64,000 nt of DNA from Patescibacteria group bacterium (lineage in GTDB: Bacteria > Patescibacteriota > Patescibacteriia > JAXHNJ01): positions 210,741-274,740 of the forward strand of contig JBAZMP010000001.1 in the NCBI GenBank assembly GCA_041649715.1, given 5' to 3'. Of the stretch, positions 1 through 54,241 are shown in pieces. Numbering within the stretch: the first letter of the stretch is position 1; every line of letters starts with the position of its first letter. Under the pieces are notes generated by a model. It had not been told where the DNA came from. It made no database searches and saw only the letters and a program-made list of their open reading frames with translations. The position numbers and the translations under genes are program-made.

Positions 1-9
1 CCGGAAGGC

Positions 10-1068
10 TTGGATGCCGTTTTGGTCAAAGATAAGACCGGCCGCCTGAAAATGTGGCAGAACGGCCAGTTGAAAGAAATGAATGTTTCTCCGGCCTTTT
101 CCCCTTTACCAGCCGTGCCGCCCGCCCCCCCTCGCCTCCCTCCCTCTTTTGAACCGGAAGATGAGGCCGAGATAAAAAATCACACGGATAATCTTTCGCA
201 GTACGGGCCGTCCCAAAACTACAACGTGGAGGAAATTATCTCAAAAATAGCCGCTCGATACAAATTGACTTTTAGCGAAGAAATTTTTTCCAAGCGTTTT
301 ATTTCCATTATCACGGCCCGTCTTAAGGAATTTCGAAACCGCGCGGATACGCTCGATCTTCTGACGCGCTCGGTAAAAATCGGCGGCTTGGAGTATCCGC
401 CGGAATTGGCGGAACAGATTCTAGAAGATTTAGACAAAGAGATACCAAGATTGCAGCAGGTCAAACCGCCGCAAAAATCAAAACCGGAAAATATTCCGGT
501 CACTCCCCAGGAAGCCCTGAAGAAGTCCTTGATCCAGGCCAATGTCTTCCGCTCCCCGACTCCGGAGGTCGTGCCTCCCAAAAAGGTTCCTGTCAATCCC
601 GTTCCCTTAGAATCTGTCCCCCCAAAACCACCGATACCGGAATTAGAGCCGGAAAGGAAAGAAGTCGTTTCCCGTCCGATGATGCACCGGCCGCCCGCCT
701 CTTCCGCCAAACCGAGGATGGATGATATTAAAAGCCGGGCCAAGATTTTCGGCCCCATCGAAGAATTAAAAGCTATGACAGTCAATGATTTCCGGCGTTT
801 AGGCACGGCAAAAGCCACGGCGGCGCAAAGGGTCGCTGACAAGATCAATCTTTTAAGGGAGGATTCTTTTCATAAGTTTGCCGAAGGCCTGAAGGCTTGG
901 CGGGCGGGCGAAGTATATCAGCTTTATCTAAATATGGGCATGGAGAGCATGGAAAAAGGCAAGTCGATCCGGGAAACGATTGAAAGAATGACCAATGCCG
1001 GTTTGCCCACTCTTTCCGAGCAGGAATTCAATTCCATCGTTGACCTGAACCGCAAATTAAGATATTAA
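10..1068 (+). CDS. Hypothetical Pro-rich protein; possibly 5'-partial, since the frame is open to the window edge and the start is TTG
   Basis: 352-aa ORF. Pro-rich N-terminal half. No recognisable catalytic motif. Same strand as, and immediately upstream of, the T4SS-like genes. Confidence 0.45.
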   Translation: MDAVLVKDKTGRLKMWQNGQLKEMNVSPAFSPLPAVPPAPPRLPPSFEPEDEAEIKNHTDNLSQYGPSQNYNVEEIISKIAARYKLTFSEEIFSKRFISIITARLKEFRNRADTLDLLTRSVKIGGLEYPPELAEQILEDLDKEIPRLQQVKPPQKSKPENIPVTPQEALKKSLIQANVFRSPTPEVVPPKKVPVNPVPLESVPPKPPIPELEPERKEVVSRPMMHRPPASSAKPRMDDIKSRAKIFGPIEELKAMTVNDFRRLGTAKATAAQRVADKINLLREDSFHKFAEGLKAWRAGEVYQLYLNMGMESMEKGKSIRETIERMTNAGLPTLSEQEFNSIVDLNRKLRY

Positions 1069-1077
1069 CCTTAATAT

Positions 1078-1581
1078 ATGCAGTTTATTGTGCCCCAATT
1101 CATTGATGTCGAAAATAAGATAATTGGTCCGATTTCCGTCCGCCAATTTATCACTTTGCTCGTCGGCGGCCTTTTTATTTATGTCGATTATGAAATCTTT
1201 TTTCCTATCAGTTTTTGGCTATTCGCCATCATCGGCGTCGTGCTCCTGGGCGTGTCGGGCACTTTCGCTTTCCTCCGGATCAGCGGCCGGCCCTTCCATT
1301 ATTTCATCCTTAATCTTTTTAACACTTTCAAGGAGCCGCGCCTAAGAGTCTGGAACAAACAAACAAGTCAGAATGACCTTAAATACAAGGAGGAAAAAAT
1401 TATTCCGCCCGTCGTCATCCCGCAAAAAAAGCCGCTTTCGGCCACGCGGTTGGCTGAACTTTCCTTGCTCGTGGATACGGGCGGCGTCTACCATGACGAG
1501 GAGGCTTTGGAAGAATTAGAAGATAGGCCGGAAAAGATGGCCGTTAATACTCTAATTAAACAAAAAAACCATGCCCGCTAA
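1078..1581 (+). CDS. Small membrane protein, PrgI/VirB3-like (T4SS-associated)
   Basis: 167 aa. Two adjacent hydrophobic helices near the N-terminus (LLVGGLFIYV...FWLFAIIGVVLLGVSGTFAFL). Overlaps the next gene by 11 nt. Directly upstream of the VirB4 ATPase. Confidence 0.45.
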   Translation: MQFIVPQFIDVENKIIGPISVRQFITLLVGGLFIYVDYEIFFPISFWLFAIIGVVLLGVSGTFAFLRISGRPFHYFILNLFNTFKEPRLRVWNKQTSQNDLKYKEEKIIPPVVIPQKKPLSATRLAELSLLVDTGGVYHDEEALEELEDRPEKMAVNTLIKQKNHAR

Positions 1582-2251
1582 AATTACCGGAAAAAATCGA
1601 GCGGTCTCCACTCAGCGGTATCTCGATATCACGGAGATAAAAGACAACTGCGTTGTTTTGAAGGACGGCACTCTTCGGGCGGTTTTGATGGTCTCTTCGG
1701 TCAATTTTTCGCTGAAAGGCGAAGAAGAGCAATCGGCCATTATCCAGGGGTACGTCCAGTTTTTAAACGCTCTGGATTTTAATCTTCAGATCGTCATTCA
1801 GTCCCGGAAGCTAAACATCGATAATTATCTGGAGAGAATAAAAAAAGTGGAAAAAGAGCAGACCAATGAACTGCTGCGGCTGCAGACGGTCGAATACCGC
1901 CAGTACATTTCGGAGCTGGTGCAAATGGCCGATATCATGAGCAAAAGGTTTTACGTGGCGGTCCCTTATTCCGGAAAAAAGGACAAGCAAAAAAATTTCA
2001 TCGCCCACTTTCTCGAGTCTATTTCGCCGACCACCGCTATTCATCTTAAAAAGCAGAAGTTTGAAAAATATCAGCTGGAACTGTTTAAGCGCGTGGATTA
2101 CGTGCGCGACGGCCTTTCTTCCTTGGGTTTGAGGGCGGAACCCCTGGATACCCAGAGCCTGATCGAGCTTTTTTATAATACCTATAATCCCGTGACCTAC
2201 AGTCAGGAAAAATTAGCCGACATCAAAAAAATAAACGTGGAGACCCAATAG
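1571..2251 (+). CDS. Hypothetical protein in the T4SS-like operon (possibly a separately encoded VirB4 N-terminal-like domain)
   Basis: 226 aa, soluble. Start codon overlaps the stop of the upstream gene and it ends 8 nt before virB4. No Walker motifs. Confidence 0.35.
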   Translation: MPAKITGKNRAVSTQRYLDITEIKDNCVVLKDGTLRAVLMVSSVNFSLKGEEEQSAIIQGYVQFLNALDFNLQIVIQSRKLNIDNYLERIKKVEKEQTNELLRLQTVEYRQYISELVQMADIMSKRFYVAVPYSGKKDKQKNFIAHFLESISPTTAIHLKKQKFEKYQLELFKRVDYVRDGLSSLGLRAEPLDTQSLIELFYNTYNPVTYSQEKLADIKKINVETQ

Positions 2252-2259
2252 GGTATTTT

Positions 2260-4200
2260 ATGACTGAAATAAATCTATCAAAAGTAAAATTTTCCTCTCA
2301 GAAGATGGCCGCCGGCAGCCAGCCCGCCAAAAAGGTCACTTTACCCCAGGAAGCAAGAGAGATGATCGAGGCGGAAAGGATCTACCGGCGGGGCGTGATT
2401 TCCGTGCGTGATCTGGTGGCCCCAGCGGCCATGAAAGTAGAGAAGGATTATCTCCATCTGGGCGGCAAGTATGTCCGGACGGTTTTTGTCGTCACTTATC
2501 CCCGCTATATCTCGGTCGGCTGGTTTGCGCCGGTCATCAATCTGAATTTGACCCTTGATATCGCCATGTTTTATTATCCCGTTGAGTCAAAAATAATCTT
2601 AAAGCAGCTGAAAAATAAAGTCGGAAATCTTGAGGCGCAGATTCTTTCTGACGCGGAAAAGGGGGCTCCCCGTGACCCGATGAGGGAAACAGCCTTGCGC
2701 GACATTGAAAAGTTAAGAGATGATCTGACCCAGGGGACGGAAAAATTCTTCCAGTTCGCCCTGTACATCACTCTTTACGCCGATAAGGTGGAAGAGCTTA
2801 ATAATATCACCGAAAAGATCGAATCGATGTTCGGCGCCGTTCTGGTCTACAGCAAAAGGGCCCTTTTCCAGGCGGAGCAGGGATTTAATTCCACCTTGCC
2901 CTTGGGTCTGGATGAGCTGATGGTCACCTTTAACATGAATTCCTCCCCCTGCGCTTCGTCTTTCCCGTTTATTTCCGCGGACCTGACCTCGGATAACGGG
3001 ATTCTTTACGGCATTAACCGGCACAATAACAGCTTGATCCTGTTTGACCGTTTTTCCCTGGAAAACGCGAATTTAAATGTTTTTGCCGTTTCCGGCTCGG
3101 GAAAAAGTTACGCCGTCAAGCTGGAGGTCCTGCGCAGCCTGATGATGGGCACGGATATCATTATTGTTGATCCGGAAATGGAGTACAAATATCTTTCTGA
3201 CGCGGTCGGCGGCACCTATGTCAATATTTCTTTGAATTCCGAGAGCAAGATCAATCCTTTTGACCTGCCTAGGGCCATTCACGGCGAAGAGAAAACCGCC
3301 GATATTATCCGTTCCGCCGTCATCACCTTAAAATCCTTGGTGCGGCTGATGCTCGGGGAGCTGACCCACGAAGAGGATTCCATTGTTGACCGGGCGCTTT
3401 TGGAAACTTACGCCAAAAAAGACATCACGGCTGAATCAGATCTTTCAAGCATTGAACCGCCCTTGATGAAGGATTTTCAGGAAGTCCTGGAAGGGATGGT
3501 CGGGGCGGAAGAGCTGGTCCAGCGCCTGAAAAAATACACCGAAGGGACGTTCGCCGGCCTTTTTAACAGCCCGACCAACGTGGAAATAAACAATCAGCTG
3601 GTCGTTTTTTCCGTCCGTGACCTGGAAGATGAGCTCCGGCCGATCGGCATTTCCACGATTGTTTCCTTTATCTGGAACGTCGTCCGTTCCGAGCTTAAAA
3701 AAAGAATTTTGGTCATTGATGAGGCGTGGTGGCTGATGCAGAACGAAGACTCGGCCAAATTCATCTACGCCTTGGTCAAGCGCTGCCGCAAATATTATTT
3801 GGGGGTGACCACCATCACCCAGGATGTCAATGATTTTCTGCACTCACCTTACGGCCAGGCGATCGTCAACAACTCCGCTTTGCAGCTTTTGATGAAACAG
3901 TCGCCGGCGGGGGTGGACATTGTGGCCAAAACCTTTCTTCTTACCCAGGGCGAACGGTATTTGCTGCTGGAATGCGGGGTCGGCGAAGGGATATTTTTTG
4001 CCGGTACCAGACACGCGGCCATTAAAGTGGTCGCTTCCTACACCGAAGACCAGATTATCACTTCCGATCCTCGCCAGTTGCTGGAGATAGAAGCCGCAAA
4101 GAAAGAATTTGAAAAGACGGTGGCGGCGGAAGAAGGCGAAGAAAAAAATTATAAATCTTCCAAGGCCAGGGAGGCCGAAGAGGAGGAGGGGTTAGGCTAG
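2260..4200 (+). CDS. virB4: VirB4/TrbE/TraC-family type IV secretion ATPase
   Basis: 646 aa. Walker A FAVSGSGKSYAV. Walker B ILVIDEAWWLM (the DEAW motif typical of VirB4). Size and motif order fit VirB4. Confidence 0.8.
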   Translation: MTEINLSKVKFSSQKMAAGSQPAKKVTLPQEAREMIEAERIYRRGVISVRDLVAPAAMKVEKDYLHLGGKYVRTVFVVTYPRYISVGWFAPVINLNLTLDIAMFYYPVESKIILKQLKNKVGNLEAQILSDAEKGAPRDPMRETALRDIEKLRDDLTQGTEKFFQFALYITLYADKVEELNNITEKIESMFGAVLVYSKRALFQAEQGFNSTLPLGLDELMVTFNMNSSPCASSFPFISADLTSDNGILYGINRHNNSLILFDRFSLENANLNVFAVSGSGKSYAVKLEVLRSLMMGTDIIIVDPEMEYKYLSDAVGGTYVNISLNSESKINPFDLPRAIHGEEKTADIIRSAVITLKSLVRLMLGELTHEEDSIVDRALLETYAKKDITAESDLSSIEPPLMKDFQEVLEGMVGAEELVQRLKKYTEGTFAGLFNSPTNVEINNQLVVFSVRDLEDELRPIGISTIVSFIWNVVRSELKKRILVIDEAWWLMQNEDSAKFIYALVKRCRKYYLGVTTITQDVNDFLHSPYGQAIVNNSALQLLMKQSPAGVDIVAKTFLLTQGERYLLLECGVGEGIFFAGTRHAAIKVVASYTEDQIITSDPRQLLEIEAAKKEFEKTVAAEEGEEKNYKSSKAREAEEEEGLG

Positions 4201-4226
4201 AACAATCTTAATAATTCTTAAAATAT

Positions 4227-4829
4227 ATGAAAAGAATAATATTGATCGTCGGCGCACTCCTCGTTTTAATTTTAGCGGGCCTGGCGCTTTACTGGTTTTA
4301 TTTTAGACCGTCGCCCGCCAACCAAAATACGGCGCCCGAAAACAATAATGTCAATCAGGCCATAAACAGTCATCAAAACGATAACGGGAACGAGAATACG
4401 AATACGGCGGTCAATGATAACACGAACCAGACCGCCTCGCTTGGCTCAGAAAAGATCAGGCAGGTCAGCCGGATTTTCGCCGAACGTTACGGCAGTTACT
4501 CGAATGAAAATGATTTTGAGAATCTTGTCGCCCTGAAGACCTATATGACCGATAAGTTTCAGAAAGAAACCGACAATTATATCACGAGCGAAAAAAGCAA
4601 GCTGACGGGCAATGAAGCTTACTTCGGGGTGATATCCGAAATGCTCTCGGTCAATGTCATTTCTTTGACGGAAAATAGCGCCCAAGCGGCGGTCACTTTG
4701 AGGCGGACGGAAAGGAATGAGACCAGCCCGACCGGTACTTATTTTCAAAATCTTTCTTTAAAATTTGTTAAATCCGGAAACGATTGGCTGGTGAGCAGTG
4801 CTGCTTGGCAAGAAAAAATTACCCAATAA
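4227..4829 (+). CDS. Membrane-anchored secreted protein, Asn-rich low-complexity N-terminal region
   Basis: 200 aa. N-terminal TM (ILIVGALLVLILAGLALYWF) followed by an N/Q-rich stretch. Confidence 0.5.
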   Translation: MKRIILIVGALLVLILAGLALYWFYFRPSPANQNTAPENNNVNQAINSHQNDNGNENTNTAVNDNTNQTASLGSEKIRQVSRIFAERYGSYSNENDFENLVALKTYMTDKFQKETDNYITSEKSKLTGNEAYFGVISEMLSVNVISLTENSAQAAVTLRRTERNETSPTGTYFQNLSLKFVKSGNDWLVSSAAWQEKITQ

Positions 4830-4846
4830 AATAAGCAAGTATTTTT

Positions 4847-5365
4847 ATGCGGTTGGAAGAAGAAGGTGACAATCAGGAAGAATTGCAGGAGGAAGACGAT
4901 ATTCGGCGTGAGCAGGAGGAAAACGGTATACGGCGCGAAATGGAGAGCCAGCAACTGCAAGAAAGACGGAACGAAGAACAGGCGCGGCCGAATGTCGGAC
5001 AAGAAGAGTCAAACGGCCAAGAGGGGGGCAATAGCCGGGCCGGCGACGAAAAGTCAGATGCGCGGTCATTTTCCGAGACGATAAGGCAGGCCAAACAAGC
5101 GGCGGATAAGGTAAAAAAAGTGGCGGAAACAGCGAAAAAAGTCCACCGATTCGTGCGGGTAATGCAGATAATCTGGGGGGCGATAACTTTTGTCATAGGT
5201 ACCTGGTGGTTTTGGCTGATTGTGATCGCCTTATTGTTTCTTGCCATTATAATAGGTTTTTGTAAACAGGATCCCTGCCAGTGCACGGGAGCCGGCAATA
5301 TTTTCCCCACTTTTGGACAATTCATTTATGATTTATTGAATTTATATTGTAAGACGACTGGTTGA
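4847..5365 (+). CDS. Acidic low-complexity protein with C-terminal transmembrane hairpin
   Basis: 172 aa. E/Q/R-rich N-terminal half, then two hydrophobic helices (WGAITFVIGTWWFWLIVIALLFLAIIIGF). An overlapping minus-strand ORF (4873..5325) is taken as spurious because all neighbours are on +. Confidence 0.4.
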   Translation: MRLEEEGDNQEELQEEDDIRREQEENGIRREMESQQLQERRNEEQARPNVGQEESNGQEGGNSRAGDEKSDARSFSETIRQAKQAADKVKKVAETAKKVHRFVRVMQIIWGAITFVIGTWWFWLIVIALLFLAIIIGFCKQDPCQCTGAGNIFPTFGQFIYDLLNLYCKTTG

Positions 5366-5387
5366 AAGCAATTAAATATTCTTCATA

Positions 5388-6662
5388 ATGCCTAAAACAA
5401 AGATAATAATAATACTGACGGTCTTGGCCGGCTTTCTGCTGGCTCCCGCTTTGTTATGGGCGCAGACGGAAACGGCGAATCCGGAGATACCCCTGCAAAT
5501 AAAAATCCCTATTTTTTCCTCGCCTTGCGTCGATCAGGTAAAATACCCCGGCCGCAACTGCGTCAGTGATTTCGGCGATTACATCGGCCGGTTTTACAAA
5601 TATTTTTCCGGCGTCATCGGCATCCTGGCGGCGGCGATGATCGTTTTCGGCGGTTTCCAGTGGGTGACGGCTTCAGGCAACGCGAGCAGAATCCAAAACG
5701 CCAAAACGACGATCACCGGGGCGTTGGTAGGCGTGGTTTTAACCCTATGCGCTTATGTTTTTTTGAATACCATCAATCCGGACCTGGTCTCCTTGAGGTT
5801 CCCTAATTTATCCAATATAACGCGGCAGGTTTTGGGCACTAATTTCTGCGTGGATTTACCCACGCAGTCAGGCTTGCCGCTCGTGACCGATCCAGAACAT
5901 ATACCCTGTGGCCAATATAGGGGCTTTGATCAGTCTAAATCTACCACCACCTATACTCAAGATTATTGCTGCGGGAATTGGTGCGGCCCGGATGAAGACG
6001 GAAATTCGCAAGTCTGTGCGATAGCGTCAGGCGCAAGCGTTGACAAAAAATGTCCGGAAACTTGCCAAAGTCCCAAAAAAATCTGCGAGGATGCAGACGT
6101 CAGCCAATGTAAACAAGTTGACTCCAGTTTTGCCAGTCAGGGTATAAATAGTGTTTGTCGTCAGCTAGATAGAACATCATTTGTTCGCACGGGGGTAAGT
6201 GATACTTGTCGTTATGGCGAAATAGCAAAGAGTCCTTGCAGCACGGATGGGTCGTTAAAGAAGGTCGCCTGTAACTATTCCGGTATCAATAAAGATTTTG
6301 ATACGCCTTGCTGGAATGCTAGCGGGGCCCGCTATTTGGCAATAGGTGTCGCAAAAACGGTAGGTACTGTCACTTACCGTTATTGGTGCAATTCAACAGA
6401 TAGGATCGGGGTGGATACTGATTCATTTTGTTGTGCGCAAATAAGAAAGCAGGATATTAAATGTTTGAGTGAAAGTGAAGGCGCGGCGCAAAAAGATTAT
6501 GTCGAGGTCAGCTGTACGACCGCGATGGCTGACCTGGGGTATAGTCTCAGTTTTAATAGCATGCCCGGTAATTACGCCGACTCCTCCGTTTCTACTTGTG
6601 ATGGCGGCAGAAGGTGTTATATGCAGCTTAGTTTAAGGTACTCTACTTATACTTATAAATAA
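5388..6662 (+). CDS. Secreted protein with VirB2/TrbC-type T4SS pilin-like module and Cys-rich C-terminal domain
   Basis: 424 aa. Signal peptide. 70-aa module FYKYFSGVIGILAAAMIVFGGFQWVTASGNASRIQNAKTTITGALVGVVLTLCAYVFLNTINP (two hydrophobic helices around GN..AK, as in TrbC/VirB2 pilins). Then about 260 aa with more than 25 Cys. Confidence 0.6.
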   Translation: MPKTKIIIILTVLAGFLLAPALLWAQTETANPEIPLQIKIPIFSSPCVDQVKYPGRNCVSDFGDYIGRFYKYFSGVIGILAAAMIVFGGFQWVTASGNASRIQNAKTTITGALVGVVLTLCAYVFLNTINPDLVSLRFPNLSNITRQVLGTNFCVDLPTQSGLPLVTDPEHIPCGQYRGFDQSKSTTTYTQDYCCGNWCGPDEDGNSQVCAIASGASVDKKCPETCQSPKKICEDADVSQCKQVDSSFASQGINSVCRQLDRTSFVRTGVSDTCRYGEIAKSPCSTDGSLKKVACNYSGINKDFDTPCWNASGARYLAIGVAKTVGTVTYRYWCNSTDRIGVDTDSFCCAQIRKQDIKCLSESEGAAQKDYVEVSCTTAMADLGYSLSFNSMPGNYADSSVSTCDGGRRCYMQLSLRYSTYTYK

Positions 6663-6681
6663 TTCATTTTAATATAATCTT

Positions 6682-7938
6682 ATGTCTCTTTGGAAAAAAA
6701 TACTATTAATGGCGGGTTTTGTCGCGGTCGCGGTCGGTTTCGGCTATTTTATTTTCCGCGTCTTCTTCGGCCCGGCCAACGGCAATATCAACGGTAATAT
6801 CAACGGCAATGTTAACGGTGCTTTGCCGAACGCCAATTTGGTTAACCGGCCGCCGACCAATGAGAATGTTAATGGTGTCTTGCCGAATATAAATGTCGGC
6901 GGCAATGTCAATGCCGGCATTGTTCCCGTTTCGCCGGTCGCCGCCGGCGGCGCGACCGTCGTCAAAGAAATCACCGATAACCAGACGCAGGACGCGGTTA
7001 TGGACAGTAATAGCCGCGATTTTGTCTATTACGACAGGGCCAGCGGCGAATTCCGGAAAGTCTCGGCGGACGGTTCGCAGAAAAGCCTGCTTACCTCCGA
7101 TACCTTTCCCGCGGCCGACCAAGTCTATTGGTCGCCCAGCCGCGACAAAGCGGTCGTCGCTTTTCCCGATGACTCCAAGATCGTCTATGATTTCAACCAG
7201 AAAAAACAATACAGCCTGCCGGAAGAGACGACGGAATTTTCCTTTTCTCAAGATGGCCGCCAGATGGTCTACAAATATGAAGGATATAATGCCGAGGAAC
7301 GCTGGCTGGCGGTTTCAAACCCCGACGGTTCAGGATCAAAAATCGTGGAATCGATCGGAGACAAATCGGATTTTGTCAGTGTCGACTGGGCGCCTAACAA
7401 CCAGATCGTCGCCACCTACGCCCGTTCAATGGGCCTTGACCGCCAGGAAATAGTTTTTTTAGGGCAAAACAACGAGAATTTTCCTTCCGTGGAGGTGAAC
7501 GGCCGTAATTTCCAGTCTGCTTGGTCGCCAGCCGGTGATCGCATCATTTACAGCGTTTCCAGCAATGAGACCGATTATAATCCTACCTTGTGGGTCATGA
7601 ACGGCGCCATTGAGAATTTGGGCCAATACCCGCAGGAATTGGGAGTCGCCACCTGGCCGGACAAATGCGCTTTTGGCCTTAAAAATATCATTTATTGTGC
7701 CGTCCCCAAATACTTGCCTTCGGGCAGTGACATTTATCCGGAGCTGGCGGGCAACATCAGTGATGATTTTTATCGGATCGATCTTACCACGGGTGCCAAA
7801 ACCCTTCTTGCCACGCCCGTCAATTCTTCCGGTTACGGCAGTTACACCGCCGAAAAGGTCTTTCTTTCCGCTAATGAGGAATTTCTTTCCTTTACCGACA
7901 AAAGCACCGGCCGGCTTTATCAGATCCGTTTAAAATAG
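6682..7938 (+). CDS. Membrane-anchored TolB-like (PD40) beta-propeller protein with NGNINGN repeats
   Basis: 418 aa. N-terminal TM. (NGNI/V)x repeats. Repeated motifs with W/D/G spacing typical of PD40 blades: WSPSRDKAVVAF, FSQDGRQMVY, VDWAPNNQIVA, WSPAGDRIIY. Confidence 0.55.
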   Translation: MSLWKKILLMAGFVAVAVGFGYFIFRVFFGPANGNINGNINGNVNGALPNANLVNRPPTNENVNGVLPNINVGGNVNAGIVPVSPVAAGGATVVKEITDNQTQDAVMDSNSRDFVYYDRASGEFRKVSADGSQKSLLTSDTFPAADQVYWSPSRDKAVVAFPDDSKIVYDFNQKKQYSLPEETTEFSFSQDGRQMVYKYEGYNAEERWLAVSNPDGSGSKIVESIGDKSDFVSVDWAPNNQIVATYARSMGLDRQEIVFLGQNNENFPSVEVNGRNFQSAWSPAGDRIIYSVSSNETDYNPTLWVMNGAIENLGQYPQELGVATWPDKCAFGLKNIIYCAVPKYLPSGSDIYPELAGNISDDFYRIDLTTGAKTLLATPVNSSGYGSYTAEKVFLSANEEFLSFTDKSTGRLYQIRLK

Positions 7939-7940
7939 TT

Positions 7941-8576
7941 ATGGCCGCCATGGAAAAAAAGAAATTTTTTCTTAACGCGCTGATATATTTCGCTCTTTTT
8001 ACCCTGATTATATTTGCTGTTTCTGTCTTTAGGGGCTGCCAGAAAAATGATACTGTTATCCGGCCCGAGGTTTCAGGAAAAGACCCCCGGCTGGGAGAAA
8101 AAAACGCTAAGGTCACGATCATTGAATTCGGGGATTTTCAGTGTCCGTACTGCGATGAGCTAGCTCCCATCTTCAAAAAATTAAAGGACGAATATAAGGA
8201 GCAGCTGACCATTGTTTGGAAGGACTTCCCCTTGACGACCGTTCACGAAGAAGCTTTGTCAGCCGCCCAGGCCGCTCGTTGCAGCCAAAAACAGGGCAAA
8301 TTTTGGGAAATGCATGACGAATTATTTGCCAATCAGAGCCTATTATCAGCCGAACTTTATCCTAAATTATCCGCCAAGATAGGACTTAATACCGATCAGT
8401 TCATCGATTGTCTGAACAACGGCGAAACCCTAAGCTTGATTCAGAAGAATGTCAATGAAGGGGTGGCTCTCGGCGTGGACGGCACGCCTTATTTTTATCT
8501 TAATAATTACGTTATTACCGAGCTGATGAGCGAAGAAAGCCTGAAGGCTTTAATAACAACCGAATTAGCCAAATAA
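7941..8576 (+). CDS. dsbA: DsbA-family thiol:disulfide oxidoreductase
   Basis: 211 aa. N-terminal TM anchor. Thioredoxin CxxC active site FQCPYC. DsbA-like length. Confidence 0.7.
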   Translation: MAAMEKKKFFLNALIYFALFTLIIFAVSVFRGCQKNDTVIRPEVSGKDPRLGEKNAKVTIIEFGDFQCPYCDELAPIFKKLKDEYKEQLTIVWKDFPLTTVHEEALSAAQAARCSQKQGKFWEMHDELFANQSLLSAELYPKLSAKIGLNTDQFIDCLNNGETLSLIQKNVNEGVALGVDGTPYFYLNNYVITELMSEESLKALITTELAK

Positions 8577-8582
8577 TTAATA

Positions 8583-9797
8583 ATGAAAAATATCCGCCGA
8601 CTGAAAAAATCATCAATAATTTACGTCTTGTTGCTGTTGGCGCTGATTTTAATTATAAGAGAGGCAAGACCCGTTTATGCCGAAAAAGACCGCTGCGGCC
8701 AATTTTCTTATACCGCGAAAAATGGCCGACATGAAGTTACCTGCCAGAACGATCTTTGCTCGGTCGAGGGCGCTTCACCGAAAAATTGCGAATGCGACAA
8801 TAATTATTGCTGTGTGGAATACGAGACTGGCCGGCTTGTTTCCTTAGAATGTGTGTCTAGCGCCGGCGCCAGTACGGGGACCGAAAACGGGCAGGGCAGC
8901 GAAGTGGTTTTTGAACCGCAGATTCCCTTGCCTGATTTTGCCGGCGGTACGGTTTCCGGCAGCCAATTTGGCGAATACCTAAAAGCTTTTTACCGGTATT
9001 TTTCCGGCGTGGTCGGGATTCTGGCGGCCGCCATGATAGTTTTTGGCGGGTATCAGTGGATTACGGCCGCCGGCAACGCAAGCCGGATCCAAAACGCCAA
9101 GACAACGATCAGCGGAGCGCTGGTCGGCCTGGTTTTGACCCTGACCGCCTATATTTTTCTTAATACGATCAACCCGGAACTGGTGCAGTTCAAATCTATC
9201 GAGCCCGGCGAGATCGCTCGCAACGCGCTAGAAAGCACGCAAACTCAAGAATGCCCCACCGACACGGAACTGGTGGAATTAAAGGCTTATTTTCCCAATA
9301 ATGATTTGCTGCGCGTCGCGGCCAGCGTCTCGGATCCTCGGGTCAGAAACGTGATGATACCCAAACTTGAAAAAGCCGCCAAAGAATTAAAACAAAATGA
9401 TATGAAATTGGTGATCACCGGCGCTCATCGGACTTTTGCCACTCAACAAAGATTATTCGCCTGTTATCAGGAATACAATAATACATATAGTTGCGATCTT
9501 ACCAAGTGTCCGGAAAAATGCAACGAAGCGGCGGCGCCTTCTTGTGACGCCCCGCATCTTACCGGGATGGCCATTGATGCCTGCGTGGAGGTCGGCACCG
9601 ACACCACTTTATGCACCATGATGTCCACCAAGCCCATTAATAATAATCATCCCACTGACACGAATTTAAAAAATTCACAGATCAAGTTCCAGGAGATCAT
9701 GCAGTACAACGGTTTTTACCGCTACTGCGGTGAGTGGTGGCATTTTGAGGCAGCCGAGATGTCTGCCTCTTGTGATCCGGGCGAATATTCATATTAA
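8583..9797 (+). CDS. Fusion protein: VirB2/TrbC pilin-like module plus C-terminal M15 (VanY-like) peptidase
   Basis: 404 aa. Signal/TM. Module FYRYFSGVVGILAAAMIVFGGYQWITAAGNASRIQNAKTTISGALVGLVLTLTAYIFLNTINP is about 80% identical to that of 5388..6662. C-terminal domain carries HLTGMAIDA (the HxxGxAxD zinc site) and EWWHFE (the ExxH site), typical of LAS/M15 peptidases. Confidence 0.6.
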   Translation: MKNIRRLKKSSIIYVLLLLALILIIREARPVYAEKDRCGQFSYTAKNGRHEVTCQNDLCSVEGASPKNCECDNNYCCVEYETGRLVSLECVSSAGASTGTENGQGSEVVFEPQIPLPDFAGGTVSGSQFGEYLKAFYRYFSGVVGILAAAMIVFGGYQWITAAGNASRIQNAKTTISGALVGLVLTLTAYIFLNTINPELVQFKSIEPGEIARNALESTQTQECPTDTELVELKAYFPNNDLLRVAASVSDPRVRNVMIPKLEKAAKELKQNDMKLVITGAHRTFATQQRLFACYQEYNNTYSCDLTKCPEKCNEAAAPSCDAPHLTGMAIDACVEVGTDTTLCTMMSTKPINNNHPTDTNLKNSQIKFQEIMQYNGFYRYCGEWWHFEAAEMSASCDPGEYSY

Positions 9798-9803
9798 CGA
9801 AAA

Positions 9804-11153
9804 ATGTCTTTAAAGGGGAAAAACAAAACCATATACGTCTGTTCGCACTGCGGCTCCCAGTTTCCCAAATGGCTGGGCCGCTGTTCCGAGTGCGGCGCCT
9901 GGGGCACTTTGGCTCCAGAAATTGCGTTGCCGCCTGACCGGAAGCAGCAGATCACCGGTCGCGTCGGGGAGTTGACTGATTTTTCGCGGGTCGTGGGCCG
10001 GGATTTTTCCCGCCTAAGAACAAATTTAACGGAATTAGACCGGGTGATGGGCGGCGGACTGGTGCCTGGTTCTTTGGTGTTGCTGACCGGCGAGCCCGGG
10101 ATCGGCAAATCCACCCTGGTTTTACAGATGATAAATCTATTGAATGAGGAAACGGTCTATGTCTCCGGCGAAGAATCACCCGAGCAAATAAAATTGCGGG
10201 CGGACCGGATCGGCCTGAAATCCGCAAAATTAAAATTCCTTTCCGAAACAAATATCGATAATATTATCGCCACGCTGGCTTCCGCCCGGCCAAAAGTGGC
10301 GGTTGTCGATTCTATTCAGACGATTTTTTGGGAAGATCTGCCTTCTGAATCCGGCAGCCCGGCGCAAATCAAGGTCTGCACGGTAAAATTGATGGAGCTG
10401 GCCAAGAAAAGCGATATTGTCATAATAATTATCGGCCATGTGACAAAAGAAGGAATCCTGGCCGGGCCAAAAACCATGGAGCATTTAGTGGATACGGTTT
10501 TATACCTGGAAGGCGACCGTTACCATGCTTTTCGGCTTTTGCGGGCCACCAAGAATCGTTTCGGCGCCACTTCCGAAGTGGGCGTTTTTGACATGCAAGC
10601 CGGCGGTCTGGTGGAAGTTAATAATCCTTCGGCGGTTTTTTTGGCGGAAAGGCAAAAGTCGCCCGGATCGAGCGTCGTCGCCATCATCGAAGGCTCACGG
10701 GCTTTTTTGGTTGAGATCCAGGCTTTAGTCAATACGACCGTTTTCGGGCTGCCCAGAAGAACGGCCAATGGGGTGGATTTTAACCGTCTGCAGATGATAA
10801 TCGCTGTGCTGGCCAAGCGTTGCGGCTTCCGTTTAGGCAATCAGGATATTTACGTGAATGTGGTCGGCGGTTTTAAAGTGACTGAGCCAGCCGTGGATCT
10901 GGCCATTGCCCTGGCAATCGCCTCGGCCTTTAAGAATAAATTTATCCCGGAAAAAACGGTTGTTTTAGGCGAGATCGGTCTAGGCGGAGAGATCCGCACG
11001 GTTTCGCAAGGGGAAAAGAGATTGAATGAGATCGAAAAAATGGGTTTTAAGGATGTGATCTTGAGCGCCAATGATAAAATCAGCCGGCCAAAACTGAATC
11101 TTCTCCGCGTAAAAAATCTGGCGGAGGTAATAAAGGAAGTGATTGGATATTAA
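9804..11153 (+). CDS. radA: DNA repair protein RadA/Sms
   Basis: 449 aa. N-terminal C4 zinc finger CSHCGSQFPKWLGRCSECGAWG. Walker A GEPGIGKSTL. KNRFG motif. Lon-like C-terminal domain. Confidence 0.9.
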   Translation: MSLKGKNKTIYVCSHCGSQFPKWLGRCSECGAWGTLAPEIALPPDRKQQITGRVGELTDFSRVVGRDFSRLRTNLTELDRVMGGGLVPGSLVLLTGEPGIGKSTLVLQMINLLNEETVYVSGEESPEQIKLRADRIGLKSAKLKFLSETNIDNIIATLASARPKVAVVDSIQTIFWEDLPSESGSPAQIKVCTVKLMELAKKSDIVIIIIGHVTKEGILAGPKTMEHLVDTVLYLEGDRYHAFRLLRATKNRFGATSEVGVFDMQAGGLVEVNNPSAVFLAERQKSPGSSVVAIIEGSRAFLVEIQALVNTTVFGLPRRTANGVDFNRLQMIIAVLAKRCGFRLGNQDIYVNVVGGFKVTEPAVDLAIALAIASAFKNKFIPEKTVVLGEIGLGGEIRTVSQGEKRLNEIEKMGFKDVILSANDKISRPKLNLLRVKNLAEVIKEVIGY

Positions 11154-14504: not shown

Positions 14505-14577
14505 TGCCCTCGAGGGGAATCGAACCCTTATTGCAGGATCCGCAATCCTGCGTCCTATCCATTGAACGACGAGGGCA
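14505..14577 (-). tRNA. tRNA-Arg (anticodon GCG as read)
   Basis: Minus strand GCCCTCG-TC-GTTCAATGGATAGGAC-G-CAGGA-TTGCGGA-TCCTG-CAAT-AAGGG-TTCGATT-CCCCT-CGAGGGC-A. 7-bp acceptor stem, TTCGATT T-loop, one A-C mismatch in the T-stem, no encoded CCA. Confidence 0.7.
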
Positions 14578-14669
14578 AAGGTAACAGCGGATAGATTTTT
14601 TTTAATTTCCCGGGTTATCTTTACGCTTATTTTACTAAAAAAATTTTGGCAATTTCAAAAAGCCTAAAC

Positions 14670-15173
14670 TTATATCTTCAGCACGCGGCTTAAGGCATCG
14701 GAAGTGGGCTCATCTTCTTTTTCCAGATCTTCATCCAGGTACTTTTTCAGGATCTCCCGGATTTTCAGGGGATTTTCTTTCTCTAAAGGGATGGGCAGGG
14801 TCGGCCGGACAGCGCTTTTGAAGTCAAAATAGATGTTTTTTACTAAAGGCGGCTGGTAGATAATGTAGAATTTTTTAAGATCGTGAAAAGGGTAAAAATT
14901 CCGGCTTAGTTCGATCCCGTCTTCCTTGATCCGGCATTCGATTAACGGGGGTGATTGTCGGTTTTGGAGGATAAAAATAATGCCGATAATGACGATAATG
15001 AGGATAAAAAGATAATTTTTCGCGAAGATCGACCAGATCAAGACCGCCGCGGTGAGGATAAGAGCGGTAAGATACCAGGCCTTTCCTCTTTTATGAACGA
15101 TAAATTCCGGGAAGATCCAGGCGGCCAAAGTTTTACCATGGTCGATTTTTTCTTTTTGATTGTTATCCGGCAT
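14670..15173 (-). CDS. Hypothetical membrane protein (two TM helices)
   Basis: 167 aa. RBS GGGAG. Hydrophobic segments LTALILTAAVLIWSIF and LFILIIVIIGIIFIL. Confidence 0.5.
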   Translation of the reverse strand: MPDNNQKEKIDHGKTLAAWIFPEFIVHKRGKAWYLTALILTAAVLIWSIFAKNYLFILIIVIIGIIFILQNRQSPPLIECRIKEDGIELSRNFYPFHDLKKFYIIYQPPLVKNIYFDFKSAVRPTLPIPLEKENPLKIREILKKYLDEDLEKEDEPTSDALSRVLKI

Positions 15174-15290
15174 AGATTTTTTCTCCCATGATTTATTTTA
15201 ATTTTTGAGTTGATGGCGGAGGCGGCAGCCCCGCCATGCGGCGGGGTCTTCGCTTACGCTTCTAAATTCTCACTATGATCGGCGTCAGAA

Positions 15291-15379
15291 CGGAGGGGGT
15301 GAGATTCGAACTCACGGAACCTTTTTACGGGCTCAACGGTTTTCAAGACCGTCCCATTCAACCGCTCTGGCACCCCTCC
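15291..15379 (-). tRNA. tRNA-Ser (anticodon TGA), type II with long variable arm
   Basis: Minus strand GGAGGGG-TG-CCA-GAGCGGTTGAA-TGG-G-ACGGT-CTTGAAA-ACCGT-long arm-GTGAG-TTCGAAT-CTCAC-CCCCTCC-G. Same pattern as E. coli tRNA-Ser(UGA). Confidence 0.85.
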
Positions 15380-15424
15380 GTTCTGACGCGGAAAACTCAA
15401 CGCAATTAATAAATTATTAAAGTT

Positions 15425-15520
15425 TTTCTTCCTTCGGAAGATCACCCGTAGGGTGACAAGACTGTCCGACTTGTCCCGTCGAATGACGGGATTAAACCGC
15501 TCTCGCACGCCTCCATGAAA
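15425..15520 (-). other. tRNA-like fragment / multi-hairpin element between the two tRNA-Ser genes
   Basis: Minus strand begins GGAGGCGTGCGAGAGCGGTTTAAT (cf. tRNA-Ser 5' half GGAGGGGTGCCAGAGCGGTTGAAT) but has no matching 3' acceptor strand. It continues with four perfect hairpins: CCCGTC/GACGGG, GACAAG/CTTGTC, CACCC/GGGTG, TCTTCC/GGAAGA. Confidence 0.3.
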
Positions 15521-15609
15521 CGGAGAGTACAGGATTCGAACCTGTGCGGGACTTTTTAGATCCCCGCGGTTTAGCAAACCGCTGCCTTAAGCCACTCGGC
15601 CAACTCTCC
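15521..15609 (-). tRNA. tRNA-Ser (anticodon GCT), type II
   Basis: Minus strand GGAGAGT-TG-GCC-GAGTGGCTTAA-GGC-A-GCGGT-TTGCTAA-ACCGC-long arm-ACAGG-TTCGAAT-CCTGT-ACTCTCC-G. Confidence 0.85.
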
Positions 15610-22039: not shown

Positions 22040-22186
22040 TTGACAATATCGGTATAATATGTTTTAATAATACAGTGTTATTTATTAGACAAATACCCTT
22101 TTCTTATGTTATTATATGATCAGACAGAAGAACTGTCAAAACAGGATTTTGCCATATTTTTCAAAAATATTAATCTTTGTAAATCT

Positions 22187-23422
22187 ATGCTAAATATCAA
22201 GAGCAAAAACAAAAATCCGATCGGTTTTCTAGCCATCCTTGTTATTCTGGGATGGTTTTTTGTGGCGGGAAGAGAAAGTTTGGCTTGGACCGAACCTATG
22301 GCCGCCCCGCCCGGCGGCAATGTGCAGGCGCCGATAAATGTCTCGGCCACGGCGCAGGCAAAGATCGGCTCTTTGACTTTGGGGGTTGACAACGCTAACC
22401 CCGGTCTTTTAAGGCTTTACCCGGCCGGGCAATTATCTGGCAGTTGCTCGGAAGGGCAGTTGGCTTATTGGAGCGGCTCTGGTCTTTATTATTGCGCCAT
22501 CAGCGGCGCCAGCACCGTCTGGCGAGGTTTAAAAACGGCCAGCGGTTTTGTACTTGAAGATGACACCCAATTGGGCTGGGGTTATTTAAAAAATGATGAT
22601 AATCCGGAAGTAGAATATGCCCTTAAGGCGGTTGGTTATAGCCAAGACGGTGGTTTGCCGTACTATACTGGCATTGAGGGAGCGGCCGGCGATAATAGTG
22701 AAAAAAATTACGGCATTTATGGCACAGATGCTGGGTTCAATAATGCCTATGCCGGTTATTTCCAGGGCAATGTGGGGGTTTCTAAAAGCACGGGCGGAGA
22801 GACAAGATTACAAGTGGGAACGAATAATAGCGATGATCAAGTTAGTCTTTGCTTGAATGATAGCGGTTGTCTCACCAGCTGGCCGTTAGGCGGGGGCAGT
22901 TACTGGACGCAAAATGATTATGACACTTATTTGACCAAAACGGATAAGAATTTGGCGCTAGGCGGCAGTGAAGCAAATGAGTCGGCTTTTTACGTGAATG
23001 TGGCCAATAATATTGATAATAACGTTAAAACAATAATTGGCCAGCCGGAAGATTTGCTCCAGGAGGATCTTTCGGCCGTGACGAGCTATTTTTGCGGAGA
23101 CGGCGCCTGTATGGCGACTGAGAATAATACCAATTGTTCCGCTGATTGCCCGCCTGTTTTTGCCGCTAATAACCCGTTCTACAACAATACCAATAAAATA
23201 ATGATCTGGTCGGCTGATGAAGCTAATTACGGGACAGTTTGTTATGGCGTTAATTCATATGACGAACATTGCGGTGACAATTCTTTAGGACAACCATCAG
23301 CGGGTAATGCGGCGTATATCACCGGCTACACCCTGGGTACTTCTTATCACGCTCAAGTCAAGATTTGGGATCAATATGGTAATGTGACGTATAGCATAGA
23401 TATTCCTTTTACCCCCTCCTAG
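22187..23422 (+). CDS. Secreted surface protein, paralog family 1 (shared N-terminal motif, YAGYF motif, FN3-like C-terminus)
   Basis: The track ORF starts at 22106, but the likely start is the internal Met at 22187 (MLNIKSKNKNPIGFLAILVILGWFFVAG signal/TM). Motif WTEPMAAPPGGNVQAPINVSATAQAKIGSLTLG is shared with 23443..25650. Also AYAGYFQGNVGV. Confidence 0.5.
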   Translation: MLNIKSKNKNPIGFLAILVILGWFFVAGRESLAWTEPMAAPPGGNVQAPINVSATAQAKIGSLTLGVDNANPGLLRLYPAGQLSGSCSEGQLAYWSGSGLYYCAISGASTVWRGLKTASGFVLEDDTQLGWGYLKNDDNPEVEYALKAVGYSQDGGLPYYTGIEGAAGDNSEKNYGIYGTDAGFNNAYAGYFQGNVGVSKSTGGETRLQVGTNNSDDQVSLCLNDSGCLTSWPLGGGSYWTQNDYDTYLTKTDKNLALGGSEANESAFYVNVANNIDNNVKTIIGQPEDLLQEDLSAVTSYFCGDGACMATENNTNCSADCPPVFAANNPFYNNTNKIMIWSADEANYGTVCYGVNSYDEHCGDNSLGQPSAGNAAYITGYTLGTSYHAQVKIWDQYGNVTYSIDIPFTPS

Positions 23423-54070: not shown

Positions 54071-54241
54071 AAATACCCGGGTCGGGGTAGTGGGATTTGA
54101 ACCCACGACCTCATGCACCCCATGCATGCGCGCTAGCCAACTGCGCTATACCCCGCTAGAAATTCTTGGAATTTTTGGAGCCCCGTTATGAAAATGATTT
54201 CTAACGGGGATACCCCTTAAAGCCCCGACCCGGGTATTTAA
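54071..54241. repeat. 19-bp perfect inverted repeat bracketing tRNA-Pro, plus an internal 8-bp hairpin
   Basis: AAATACCCGGGTCGGGG (54071..54087, overlapping the tRNA 3' end) and CCCCGACCCGGGTATTTAA (54223..54241). Hairpin CCCCGTTA/TAACGGGG at 54181..54209. Confidence 0.6.
54082..54155 (-). tRNA. tRNA-Pro (anticodon GGG)
   Basis: Minus strand CGGGGTA-TA-GCGC-AGTTGGCTA-GCGC-G-CATGC-ATGGGGT-GCATG-AGGTC-GTGGG-TTCAAAT-CCCAC-TACCCCG-A. C1:G72 pair typical of tRNA-Pro. Confidence 0.8.

Follow-up and report, generated by a model that had tools for sequence, protein, structure and literature searches.

Pilin-family hairpin proteins with a cysteine-rich domain and an M15 peptidase domain in a chromosomal type IV secretion locus of Patescibacteria

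A 64,000-nucleotide stretch of DNA from an ultra-small bacterium of the Patescibacteria group (GenBank assembly GCA_041649715.1, 608-kb contig JBAZMP010000001.1; hereafter the window) encodes two proteins, termed ORF1 and ORF2 after their open reading frames (ORFs), in which a hairpin of PF18895, a pilin family of type IV secretion systems (T4SS), is covalently joined to a large additional domain. ORF1 continues into a Cys-rich domain and ORF2 into an M15 zinc peptidase domain, and both genes follow virB4 in a chromosomal T4SS locus. We found that related proteins carry the same hairpin fused to five unrelated families of peptidoglycan hydrolases, that the two hairpins of a genome evolve in concert, and that the fused proteins diverge much faster than VirB4. 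An earlier inspection of the window from its letters alone (the sequence-only reading) had described the two genes as a pilin module fused to large domains; its claims are taken up below with the evidence that bears on them.

Two proteins share a T4SS pilin-family hairpin

Both ORFs lie on the plus strand exactly where the sequence-only reading had placed them. Their parts are listed here, with signal peptides called from the layout of the n-, h- and c-regions and from hydropathy.

5388..6662, plus strand: ORF1, pilin module and Cys-rich domain, 424 amino acids (aa) (PF18895, 36 bits; NCBI protein P0004, named "pilin"; syntenic orthologues 36% identical)
5388..5462, plus strand: predicted Sec signal peptide of ORF1, aa 1-25 (MPKTK, hydrophobic core, then LWA, cleaved before Q)
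5565..5795, plus strand: pilin hairpin of ORF1, aa 60-136, with transmembrane (TM) helix, GNASRIQNAK loop, TM helix and INP (PF18895 at aa 66-129)
5796..6659, plus strand: C-terminal Cys-rich domain of ORF1, 288 aa with 22 Cys, matching no known family or fold
8583..9797, plus strand: ORF2, 404 aa, in which a pilin module links a Cys-rich N-terminal region to an M15 zinc peptidase (NCBI protein P0001, "M15 family metallopeptidase")
8583..8681, plus strand: predicted Sec signal peptide of ORF2, aa 1-33 (basic n-region MKNIRRLKK, hydrophobic core, then VYA, cleaved before E)
8682..8882, plus strand: N-terminal Cys-rich region of ORF2, 8 Cys, predicted to be extracytoplasmic from its Cys positions, without Pfam match
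8961..9191, plus strand: pilin hairpin of ORF2, aa 127-203 (PF18895 at aa 128-196)
9342..9758, plus strand: M15 (LAS-type) zinc peptidase domain of ORF2 (PF01427 and PF02557 above threshold)
9429-9431, 9555-9557, 9576-9578, 9732-9734 and 9741-9743, plus strand: codons of the ORF2 key residues R283, H325, D332, E384 and H387, respectively

In a BLASTP comparison, ORF1 and ORF2 were 56% identical along an alignment of 127 aa (E = 5e-42). The core of this match is a module of 77 aa (aa 60-136 of ORF1, aa 127-203 of ORF2) with 78% protein and 75% DNA identity, in good agreement with the ~70 aa at ~80% identity first read from the sequence. A six-frame phmmer search of the 64-kb window revealed no third copy (next match E = 0.14). 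Both modules score above the gathering score of 26.6 bits for PF18895 T4SS_pilin (36.0 bits for ORF1, 34.3 bits for ORF2), and the AlphaFold2 (AF2) models show two helices in each (aa 62-94 and 99-129 of ORF1, aa 126-161 and 166-196 of ORF2), with which the hydropathy segments concur. The GNASRIQNAK loop is nearly invariant and carries R and K.

The module had originally been assigned to the VirB2/TrbC-like pilins. Its membership in a T4SS pilin family is borne out by PF18895, but similarity to VirB2/TrbC itself was undetectable. There was no match to PF04956 (VirB2/TrbC) at E <= 0.1, and a module profile of 35 sequences (A5) found no pilin among the PDB sequences in an hmmsearch. The same profile, aligned by hhalign with a single A. 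tumefaciens VirB2 sequence (99% identical to the annotated virB2) and not with a deep VirB2/TrbC profile, gave a probability of 1.1%. This comparison leaves room for a very remote relationship. A faint TrbC match (E = 0.23) occurs in a relative from contig L008. We hypothesize, from architecture and gene neighbourhood, that the module works like a VirB2 pilin.

Given cleavage of the signal peptides and an inside location of the basic loop, both flanks of each hairpin would lie outside the membrane. The distribution of Cys residues fits this arrangement. ORF1 has 2 Cys before, 1 within and 22 after the hairpin, while ORF2 has 8 before, none within and 10 after it, and the number is even in every predicted outside segment of both proteins. 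Six of the N-terminal Cys residues of ORF2 (C54, C59, C69, C76, C77 and C90) are invariant across the four pilin-M15 proteins described below. The regions behind the hairpin comprise 288 aa in ORF1 and 201 aa in ORF2.

The pair of fusions thus exists at the stated place and goes far beyond chance. The same architecture exists elsewhere: it occurs in six independent assemblies with conserved synteny, which rules out a chance arrangement or an artefact.

The M15 domain of ORF2 retains its catalytic residues

ORF2 matches Pfam PF01427 Peptidase_M15 with 31.9 bits (gathering score 27) and PF02557 VanY with 27.8 bits (gathering score 25), and the motifs HLTGMAID and EWWHFE, from which a VanY/M15-type domain had been proposed, are both present. 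That proposal had been staked in advance on the alignment of H-x6-D and E-x-x-H with the catalytic residues of LAS peptidases. When a profile of four fusion proteins was compared with the PDB, it matched VanX (1R44, E = 3.6e-4), and in this alignment H325 and D332 of ORF2 (motif SxH..G.AID) pair with H116 and D123 of VanX, and E384 and H387 (EWWH) with E181 and H184. In VanX, H116, D123 and H184 are zinc ligands and E181 is the catalytic Glu, the numbering being that of the alignment coordinates. R283, in the stretch GAHRTFATQQ, corresponds to the conserved substrate-binding Arg of the S-x-x-R-x-x-x-Q motif and aligns with SGFRSYDYQ of the LdcB-type structures 4MPH and 4JID, the fusions reading SAFRT or GAHRT at this point; 4OX5 is also among the profile hits. 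All five residues (R283, H325, D332, E384 and H387) are invariant in 4/4 pilin-M15 proteins. NCBI model PRK10178 matches ORF2 as well (E = 4.5e-6). Because the VanX and VanY model scores are similar and low, the subfamily, and hence the bond that ORF2 would cut, is not assignable from them.

The full architecture of ORF2 is found in four database proteins, namely P0001 (the window's own), P0002, P0003 and P0028 (P labels denote relative proteins, L labels relative loci or contigs), and a genome scan identified two further pilin-M15 loci, L005 and L006. A profile search with the four pilin-M15 proteins returned no additional members, so that the VanX/VanY-type fusion is rare in that database.

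Overall, ORF2 resembles VanX/DdpX, VanY and LdcB in its above-threshold Pfam scores and in the alignment of the Arg, H-x6-D and E-x-x-H. Unlike these enzymes, its domain is predicted to be extracytoplasmic, stands behind a pilin hairpin and contains 10 Cys, with a Cys-rich insert separating the Arg from the first His.

Related hairpins are fused to five families of peptidoglycan hydrolases

An exhaustive HMMER search with the 77-aa module yielded 25,585 cluster representatives at E <= 1e-3. The best 150 of these matches and two additional proteins make up the sample of 152 relatives used here, which is biased toward the query's near kin and leaves the remaining ~25,000 outside its reach.

Pilins of this family had been expected to measure ~100 aa and to lack an extra domain. 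The sample contradicts this expectation: the median length is 388 aa across the 152 representatives, and Cys-rich C-terminal extensions occur in the majority of them. A single module, matched by PF18895 in all 108 cases, is present in 108/152 proteins, with a median C-terminal extension of 220 aa; where this extension reaches at least 100 aa, it contains at least 8 Cys in 99 of 102 proteins. The layout of ORF1 is the commonest in this subfamily.

A Pfam scan of the 108 single-module relatives detected 3D in 5, Peptidase_M15 in 4, SLT in 3 and Peptidase_M15_4 in 3 proteins. Clustering of all C-terminal regions among the 152 relatives, with spot checks added, gave the following groups of fused domains.

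SLT fusions: 9 members, e.g. P0008 (four modules and SLT, E = 1.5e-21)
3D fusions: 6 members, e.g. P0054
M15_4 fusions: 3 members, e.g. P0040 (E = 4.9e-17)
M15 fusions (VanX/VanY type): 4-5 members, P0001-P0003 and P0028

In addition, contig L008 encodes a pilin module fused to NlpC/P60 (25.2 bits against a threshold of 23) in the gene just before a pilin-SLT gene. The PF18895 hairpin is consequently joined to five unrelated peptidoglycan-hydrolase families: M15, M15_4, SLT, 3D and NlpC/P60.

On two short contigs, the genes for a pilin-M15_4 (L007) and a pilin-3D protein (L009) have a gene for DsbA directly upstream that is 44-48% identical to that of the window, and all three fusions checked for this neighbour (3/3) lie directly downstream of dsbA. 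This is the arrangement of ORF2, which indicates that different hydrolase folds occupy the same slot. The strongest case for wall cleavage as the selected function comes from this occupation of one conserved slot by different enzymes, which also suggests that the hydrolase slot supplies the "missing VirB1" of these systems.

On L008, a homologue of the beta-propeller gene of the window (E = 9e-31; see below) comes next after the pilin-SLT gene, and rnpA, yidC and dnaA are nearby, which matches a published remark that such loci often lie near the origin. The row on this metagenome contig, which is unrelated to the window, reads pilin-NlpC/P60 (2-1345), four pilin modules with SLT (1361-3217) and beta-propeller homologue (3368-4495). 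Its enzyme pair, a glycosidase and a cysteine peptidase, is that of Gram-positive VirB1-like proteins, here with each enzyme tethered to pilin hairpins.

A separate observation concerns proteins with several hairpins. Among the 152 closest relatives, 44 contain 2-11 tandem PF18895 hairpins in one polypeptide, joined by linkers of 30-60 aa; examples of such poly-pilins are P0011 (8 modules in 820 aa), P0035 (10 modules in 966 aa) and P0008 with its four modules and SLT. Published surveys describe separate pilin genes in arrays, not covalently joined modules.

The Cys-rich domain of ORF1 defines a family

The domain behind the ORF1 hairpin had been described as Cys-rich and ~260 aa long; the 22 Cys agree with the first part of this description, while the length is 288 aa. 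No Pfam family matched aa 137-424 even at E <= 1, and a phmmer search of the PDB sequences with whole ORF1 gave no match. The domain is nevertheless a real family: 14 homologues align with many invariant Cys columns, and a BLAST-linked version is present in 55/152 of the closest relatives. The AF2 model built with the 14 homologues reaches a predicted local distance difference test (pLDDT) score of ~80-90 over most of the domain, with a low-confidence linker at aa 127-160. We use "adhesin-like" for this domain only as a label, for a region that evolves fast and is predicted to be exposed and disulfide-locked. A large uncharacterised Cys-rich domain family is herewith defined, and it may determine host specificity.

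Hairpins evolve in concert and the fused proteins diverge quickly

To compare the two modules of a genome with each other and with their orthologues, we used the window and the loci L004, L002 and L006; L001/L004, L002, L003 and L006 are contigs of Patescibacteria metagenome-assembled genomes. Within a genome the modules are 78% (window), 87% (L004), 87% (L002) and 84% (L006) identical, whereas orthologous modules share 62-69% between the window and L004/L002, and below 51% between the window and L006. Outside the module, orthology holds from genome to genome: the Cys-rich domains correspond to each other, as do the M15 domains, and the N-terminal Cys region of ORF2 corresponds to its counterpart in P0002. 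In reciprocal nearest-neighbour bootstraps the paralogous modules paired in 93% of replicates for the window and 100% for L006, and the four L004/L002 modules formed an exclusive group in 99.6%. The two modules thus evolve in concert inside each genome. Matched hairpins are expected if the hairpins bind each other or the same partner. Module-limited gene conversion, old or repeated, and co-evolution at the protein level are both possible causes. Synonymous sites do not decide between them: in three genomes the synonymous divergence (dS) of paralogous modules (1.0-1.8) approaches saturation, and only L006 has a clearly lower value (0.40).

The fused proteins also stand out by their rate of change. 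Identity to the L004 orthologues is 36% for ORF1 and 40% for ORF2, compared to 56% for DsbA, 61% for the beta-propeller, 81% for RadA and 82% for VirB4. ORF1 and ORF2 hence evolve much faster than VirB4, as expected for exposed, host-facing proteins.

The genes belong to a conserved chromosomal T4SS locus

Eleven plus-strand genes run from the window start to radA with gaps of -11 to 26 bp. Besides ORF1 and ORF2, and radA directly after ORF2 at the end of the string, these are:

10..1068, plus strand: 3' part of a conserved gene that opens the locus, cut by the window start (orthologues 561-569 aa; 40-43% identical at the same position in L004 and L002); no Pfam or NCBIfam match
1078..1581, plus strand: PrgI/VirB3-like small membrane protein (PF12666 with E = 3.1e-5; its 24.8 bits fall slightly short of the 27-bit gathering score; syntenic orthologues 68-69% identical)
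1571..2251, plus strand: TrsD/TraC-N-like protein of 226 aa, the VirB4 N-terminal part as its own gene (N-terminal parts of the NCBIfam models VirB4_plasma, CD1110 and TrsD; an orthologue carries precomputed PF26593 TraC-like)
2260..4200, plus strand: VirB4-type T4SS ATPase of the monoderm CD1110 family, 646 aa (NF045971, 357.8 bits against a cut-off of 325 bits; PF19044 P-loop_TraG, E = 1e-28; orthologues 82-83% identical)
4227..4829, plus strand: 200-aa membrane protein (p200) with N-terminal TM helix and Asn-rich linker (orthologues 43-45% identical at the same position); no significant Pfam or NCBIfam match
4847..5365, plus strand: 172-aa protein whose N-terminal half is highly charged (rich in Glu/Arg/Gln) and whose C-terminal part combines a hydrophobic stretch with a Cys-containing tail, as seen in its sequence
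6682..7938, plus strand: membrane-anchored beta-propeller (TolB/PD40-like), encoded between ORF1 and ORF2 (models for PD40, TolB and beta-propellers match weakly; syntenic orthologues 61% identical)
7941..8576, plus strand: DsbA-type thiol:disulfide oxidoreductase with N-terminal TM anchor (PF13462, E = 9e-28; PF01323, E = 2.8e-16)

The DsbA and VirB4 neighbours noted in the sequence-only reading accordingly form one tight same-strand string with the PrgI/VirB3-like and TrsD-like genes, virB4 lying 1.2 kb upstream of ORF1 and dsbA immediately upstream of ORF2. The order PrgI, TrsD-like, VirB4, p200, the protein encoded at 4847..5365 or its counterpart, pilin-Cys, beta-propeller, DsbA, pilin-M15, RadA recurs in L001/L004, in L002 and in the more distant L006, and partly in L003. 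A gene for DsbA immediately precedes the pilin-hydrolase gene in L001, L002, L003, L006, L007 and L009, and the place behind VirB4 and DsbA is kept even in genomes whose VirB4 identity falls to 73%. With VirB4, PrgI and TrsD present, the sequence identifies this as a T4SS locus of the monoderm (FATA) type. The locus is chromosomal. An origin from a mobile element or plasmid was ruled out by the housekeeping genes that flank it in the genomes of relatives (PPDK, radA, recG, clpB), which are conserved between genomes, together with the lack of a relaxase or integrase.

Three of the neighbouring genes deserve a remark of their own. VirB4 is split over two genes (1571..2251 and 2260..4200); the split is kept in relatives, and the ATPase alone passes the CD1110 cut-off. 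The slot of the gene at 4847..5365 is filled in relatives by a gene for 191-235 aa that has no BLAST match to it at E < 1e-5. The beta-propeller protein, a fixed member of the pilin cluster, contains an Asn/Gly-rich repetitive linker, NGNINGNINGNVNG.

Relation to described systems

The sequence-only reading had concluded that the apparatus differs from described T4SS. This did not hold: the locus is the already described chromosomal T4SS of Patescibacteria, which is related to monoderm conjugation systems (PMC10633639, PMC12102498, PMC12857230). It shares with the described systems the phylum, the PrgI/VirB3, TrsD and FATA-type VirB4 proteins, the chromosomal location and a locus without relaxase or coupling protein. 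VirB2-like pilin genes next to virB4 have been reported for these systems (PMC10633639, PMC12102498, PMC12857230), and in Southlakia epibionticum ML1 the T4SS (SEML1_0006-0019) and its pilin array are essential for epibiotic growth (PMC10633639). A survey of 3,035 genomes with PF18895 and PF04956 found that most genomes with pilin genes are without VirB1, and that VirB6 homologues are widespread in the phylum, often away from virB4 (PMC12102498). A 2025 review considers these systems unique among monoderms in their potential to build pili (PMC12857230), and a 2024 perspective calls the role of the Patescibacteria T4SS "completely unknown" (PMC11665869). The present locus differs from this picture in that both pilin-type proteins measure 404-424 aa and carry large domains predicted to be rich in disulfides, one of them a hydrolase, and in that DsbA and beta-propeller genes are fixed members of the cluster.

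Fusion of the pilin to large domains or hydrolases is unmentioned in the searched text and supplements of PMC10633639, PMC12102498 and PMC12857230, a search that did not cover all journals; public precomputed annotation already shows the domain combination as such. The slot for pilin-tethered hydrolases of five interchangeable families, the large Cys-rich family, the concerted hairpins and the fast-evolving fusions are not in the searched literature.

Comparison with better-known systems gives the following picture. Like the VirB2/TrbC/TraA pilins of diderm T4SSs, ORF1 and ORF2 have a signal peptide (predicted here), two hydrophobic helices with a short basic loop, and genes next to those for VirB3/VirB4. 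Those pilins are ~7 kDa when mature and have no extra domain, whereas ORF1 and ORF2 carry domains of 200-290 aa and show no detectable sequence similarity to them. To our knowledge, no characterised VirB2/TraA-type T4SS pilin carries a globular enzyme.

Outside Pfam, the closest named match is NF045849, the "Mbov_0395 pilin-like" family of a Mycoplasma integrative and conjugative element (80 positions), which the modules match over nearly its full length below its cut-off (E = 7e-6 and 7e-5). Common to both are the hairpin module and a monoderm T4SS, and the window's VirB4 matches the model of Mbov_0397, the VirB4 encoded together with Mbov_0395, with 265 bits. The scores lie below the curated cut-offs, so the window proteins are not members, and the Mycoplasma proteins consist of the hairpin alone. 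As an aside, the NF045849 match raises the possibility that pilin-like hairpins exist in monoderm FATA-type T4SS, contrary to the 2025 survey (PMC12102498).

Peptidoglycan hydrolases with an N-terminal tether and an enzyme outside are encoded in the T4SS operons of pCF10 (PrgK), pIP501 (TraG) and ICEBs1 (CwlT) and by virB1, and the SLT and NlpC/P60 domains fused in relatives are the same kinds of enzymes as in the monoderm T4SS hydrolases and VirB1. Unlike in these proteins, the tether here is a pilin-family hairpin and not a single TM helix, the window's enzyme is of the M15 and not of the SLT or CHAP kind, and it is Cys-rich and paired with DsbA. Pfam detected neither an SLT nor a CHAP domain in ORF2, which could be at most a functional analogue of VirB1. 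The bacteria-killing T4SS of the Xanthomonas type, whose effectors are peptidoglycan hydrolases (PMC6536674), is likewise linked to enzymes that act on the wall of another bacterium, with fast-evolving cargo. These effectors are soluble, have a C-terminal XVIPCD that is recognised by VirD4 and are encoded next to immunity genes (PMC6536674), whereas in this locus neither a recognisable VirD4 nor a candidate immunity gene is present (DsbA and RadA being the neighbours), and its enzyme is membrane-tethered.

Proposed role and alternative explanations

On balance, we lean towards a reading in which both proteins are exported by Sec, oxidised by DsbA and anchored in or assembled by the T4SS through their hairpins, with ORF2 serving as a wall peptidase on a tether and ORF1 contributing a binding domain that is exposed. 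It draws on the family membership, the intact catalytic residues, the hairpin helices and hydropathy, the even numbers of outside Cys, the conserved operon, the recurrent fusions and the concerted modules described above. In this sequence of events, ORF1 and ORF2 would be made as Sec preproteins whose signal peptides are cleaved. The two-helix hairpin would remain in the membrane, its basic loop GNASRIQNAK facing the cytoplasm and its two flanks the outside, where the Cys-rich parts, among them the M15 domain of ORF2 and the 288 aa that follow the hairpin in ORF1, would acquire disulfides through the DsbA encoded between the two genes. The VirB4-driven machine might then recognise the hairpin, possibly for extraction and polymerisation, and would either co-assemble ORF1 and ORF2 into a short surface fibre or stalk or hold both at the machine. 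There, ORF2 could cut stem peptides locally, the part played elsewhere by VirB1, PrgK and CwlT; the wall in question may be the cell's own, that of the host bacterium at the contact site, or both. ORF1 would display its fast-evolving adhesin-like domain.

Several points weigh against this reading. A pilus has not been demonstrated experimentally in any Patescibacterium. Searches of positions 1..11153, of the ten largest ORFs in the rest of the window and of the +-10 kb in L001 recognised no VirB6, coupling protein or relaxase. Nor is there a small pilin in the window or within +-10 kb in L001; both pilin-type proteins carry domains of at least 200 aa. The packing of the subunits is a further difficulty: a tightly packed VirB2-like helix with the published geometry of F- and T-pili would leave too little surface per subunit for a domain of 22-31 kDa, an objection that is eased only if the low-confidence linker at aa 127-160 of ORF1 lets the domains stagger. 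The nearest named M15 relatives of ORF2 are VanX/DdpX dipeptidases, whose substrate is a free dipeptide rather than the wall. The AF2 model of ORF2, from an alignment of four sequences, is poor (mean pLDDT 48) and leaves the shape of the active site unreadable; even so, VanX 1R44 came out at Foldseek rank 2 with it (probability 0.87, E = 0.05), a suggestive sign for the fold of the M15 domain. Finally, the fusion frequencies given above hold for the query's closest subfamily alone, i.e. the best 150 of 25,585 matches.

A bolder version of the favoured reading is speculative and, in our judgement, on the unlikely side. VirB4 would pull the hairpins out of the membrane into a fibre studded with interchangeable disulfide-locked adhesins and at least five kinds of hydrolases, an enzymatically armed pilus that drills the host wall and enables an epibiotic, nutrient-extracting lifestyle. 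If it were true, the concerted hairpins would reflect mutual packing in one filament, and the poly-hairpin proteins would be covalently pre-assembled layers.

The alternative that fares best is a plain one. The hairpin might be a mere membrane anchor without any fibre or T4SS role, with ORF2 a housekeeping DD- or LD-carboxypeptidase of the VanY/LdcB kind that acts on the cell's own stem peptides and ORF1 an unrelated surface protein, both being mere neighbours of the T4SS genes. Such a habit runs in the family, M15B enzymes such as VanY and LdcB being membrane-anchored housekeeping carboxypeptidases, and 4MPH, 4JID and 4OX5 are among our profile hits; the continuation of the gene string into the housekeeping gene radA and the want of a demonstrated pilus point the same way. 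We consider it unlikely all the same. The tether is a hairpin of the T4SS pilin family and no simple TM helix, it has been reused for five unrelated hydrolase folds, and it keeps its position after VirB4 and DsbA down to the VirB4 identity of 73%. A passive anchor does not require concerted hairpins, and housekeeping wall enzymes would hardly diverge twice as fast as DsbA and the beta-propeller.

Alternatively, the hairpins could stay in the membrane and oligomerise into a ring- or stalk-shaped assembly that serves as the translocation channel in place of a polytopic VirB6-type subunit, the outer domains being accessories at the channel mouth. No VirB6-like polytopic protein is present in the locus or within +-10 kb of L001, the relatives with 2-11 tandem hairpins (44/152) resemble covalently pre-assembled membrane bundles, and concerted evolution fits any hetero-oligomer. 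VirB6 may, however, be encoded elsewhere in the 608-kb genome, as it often is away from virB4 in this phylum (PMC12102498), and the present data do not separate an oligomer in the membrane from an extruded one. We regard this channel as quite improbable.

That ORF2 is instead a surface VanX/DdpX-type D-Ala-D-Ala dipeptidase, scavenging D-Ala from the ends of host dipeptides or pentapeptides without any passage through the wall, seems very doubtful to us: its best matches do lie in the VanX/DdpX branch (PF01427 31.9 bits, PRK10178 E = 4.5e-6, 1R44 E = 3.6e-4) and Patescibacteria depend on building blocks from the host (PMC11665869), but these scores are all low and near the 27.8 bits of VanY, so that the subfamily is insecure, and the equivalent slot elsewhere holds enzymes of the kinds that cleave glycan strands or act as endopeptidases (3D and M15_4, next to the SLT and NlpC/P60 fusions), which argues for wall cleavage as the shared function.

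The favoured reading, that of a T4SS-anchored peptidase and binding domain, would matter beyond this genome. The T4SS of Patescibacteria is widespread, often chromosomal and, in the single species studied in this respect, indispensable for growth on its host. If wall enzymes are built into pilin-family proteins, this would give a concrete answer to the puzzle of the genomes without VirB1 (PMC12102498), and the "pilins" counted in surveys would be mixed surface-display proteins and not simple fibre subunits. The hydrolase slot, the Cys-rich family and the concerted hairpins make the function of this T4SS testable.

Further features of the window

The window contains no rRNA gene. Four tRNA genes lie on the minus strand (within 14505..15609 and 54082..54155), two of which are 89 nt long and have a long variable arm. 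At 23443..25650, a 735-aa protein ends in a Hint/pretoxin-HINT domain (PF07591, E = 2.4e-9) of the kind known from polymorphic toxin systems, and it is surrounded by large ORFs without Pfam match at 22106..23422 (438 aa), 25711..27693 (660 aa) and 27732..31427 (1231 aa). Furthermore, the product of 34743..36509 is an ATPase of the PilB/GspE type (PF00437, E = 2e-128; MshEN domain also present), the motor of a type IV pilus or type II secretion system. The other pilus system, known for its importance in host attachment by Patescibacteria, is accordingly present in the genome as well.

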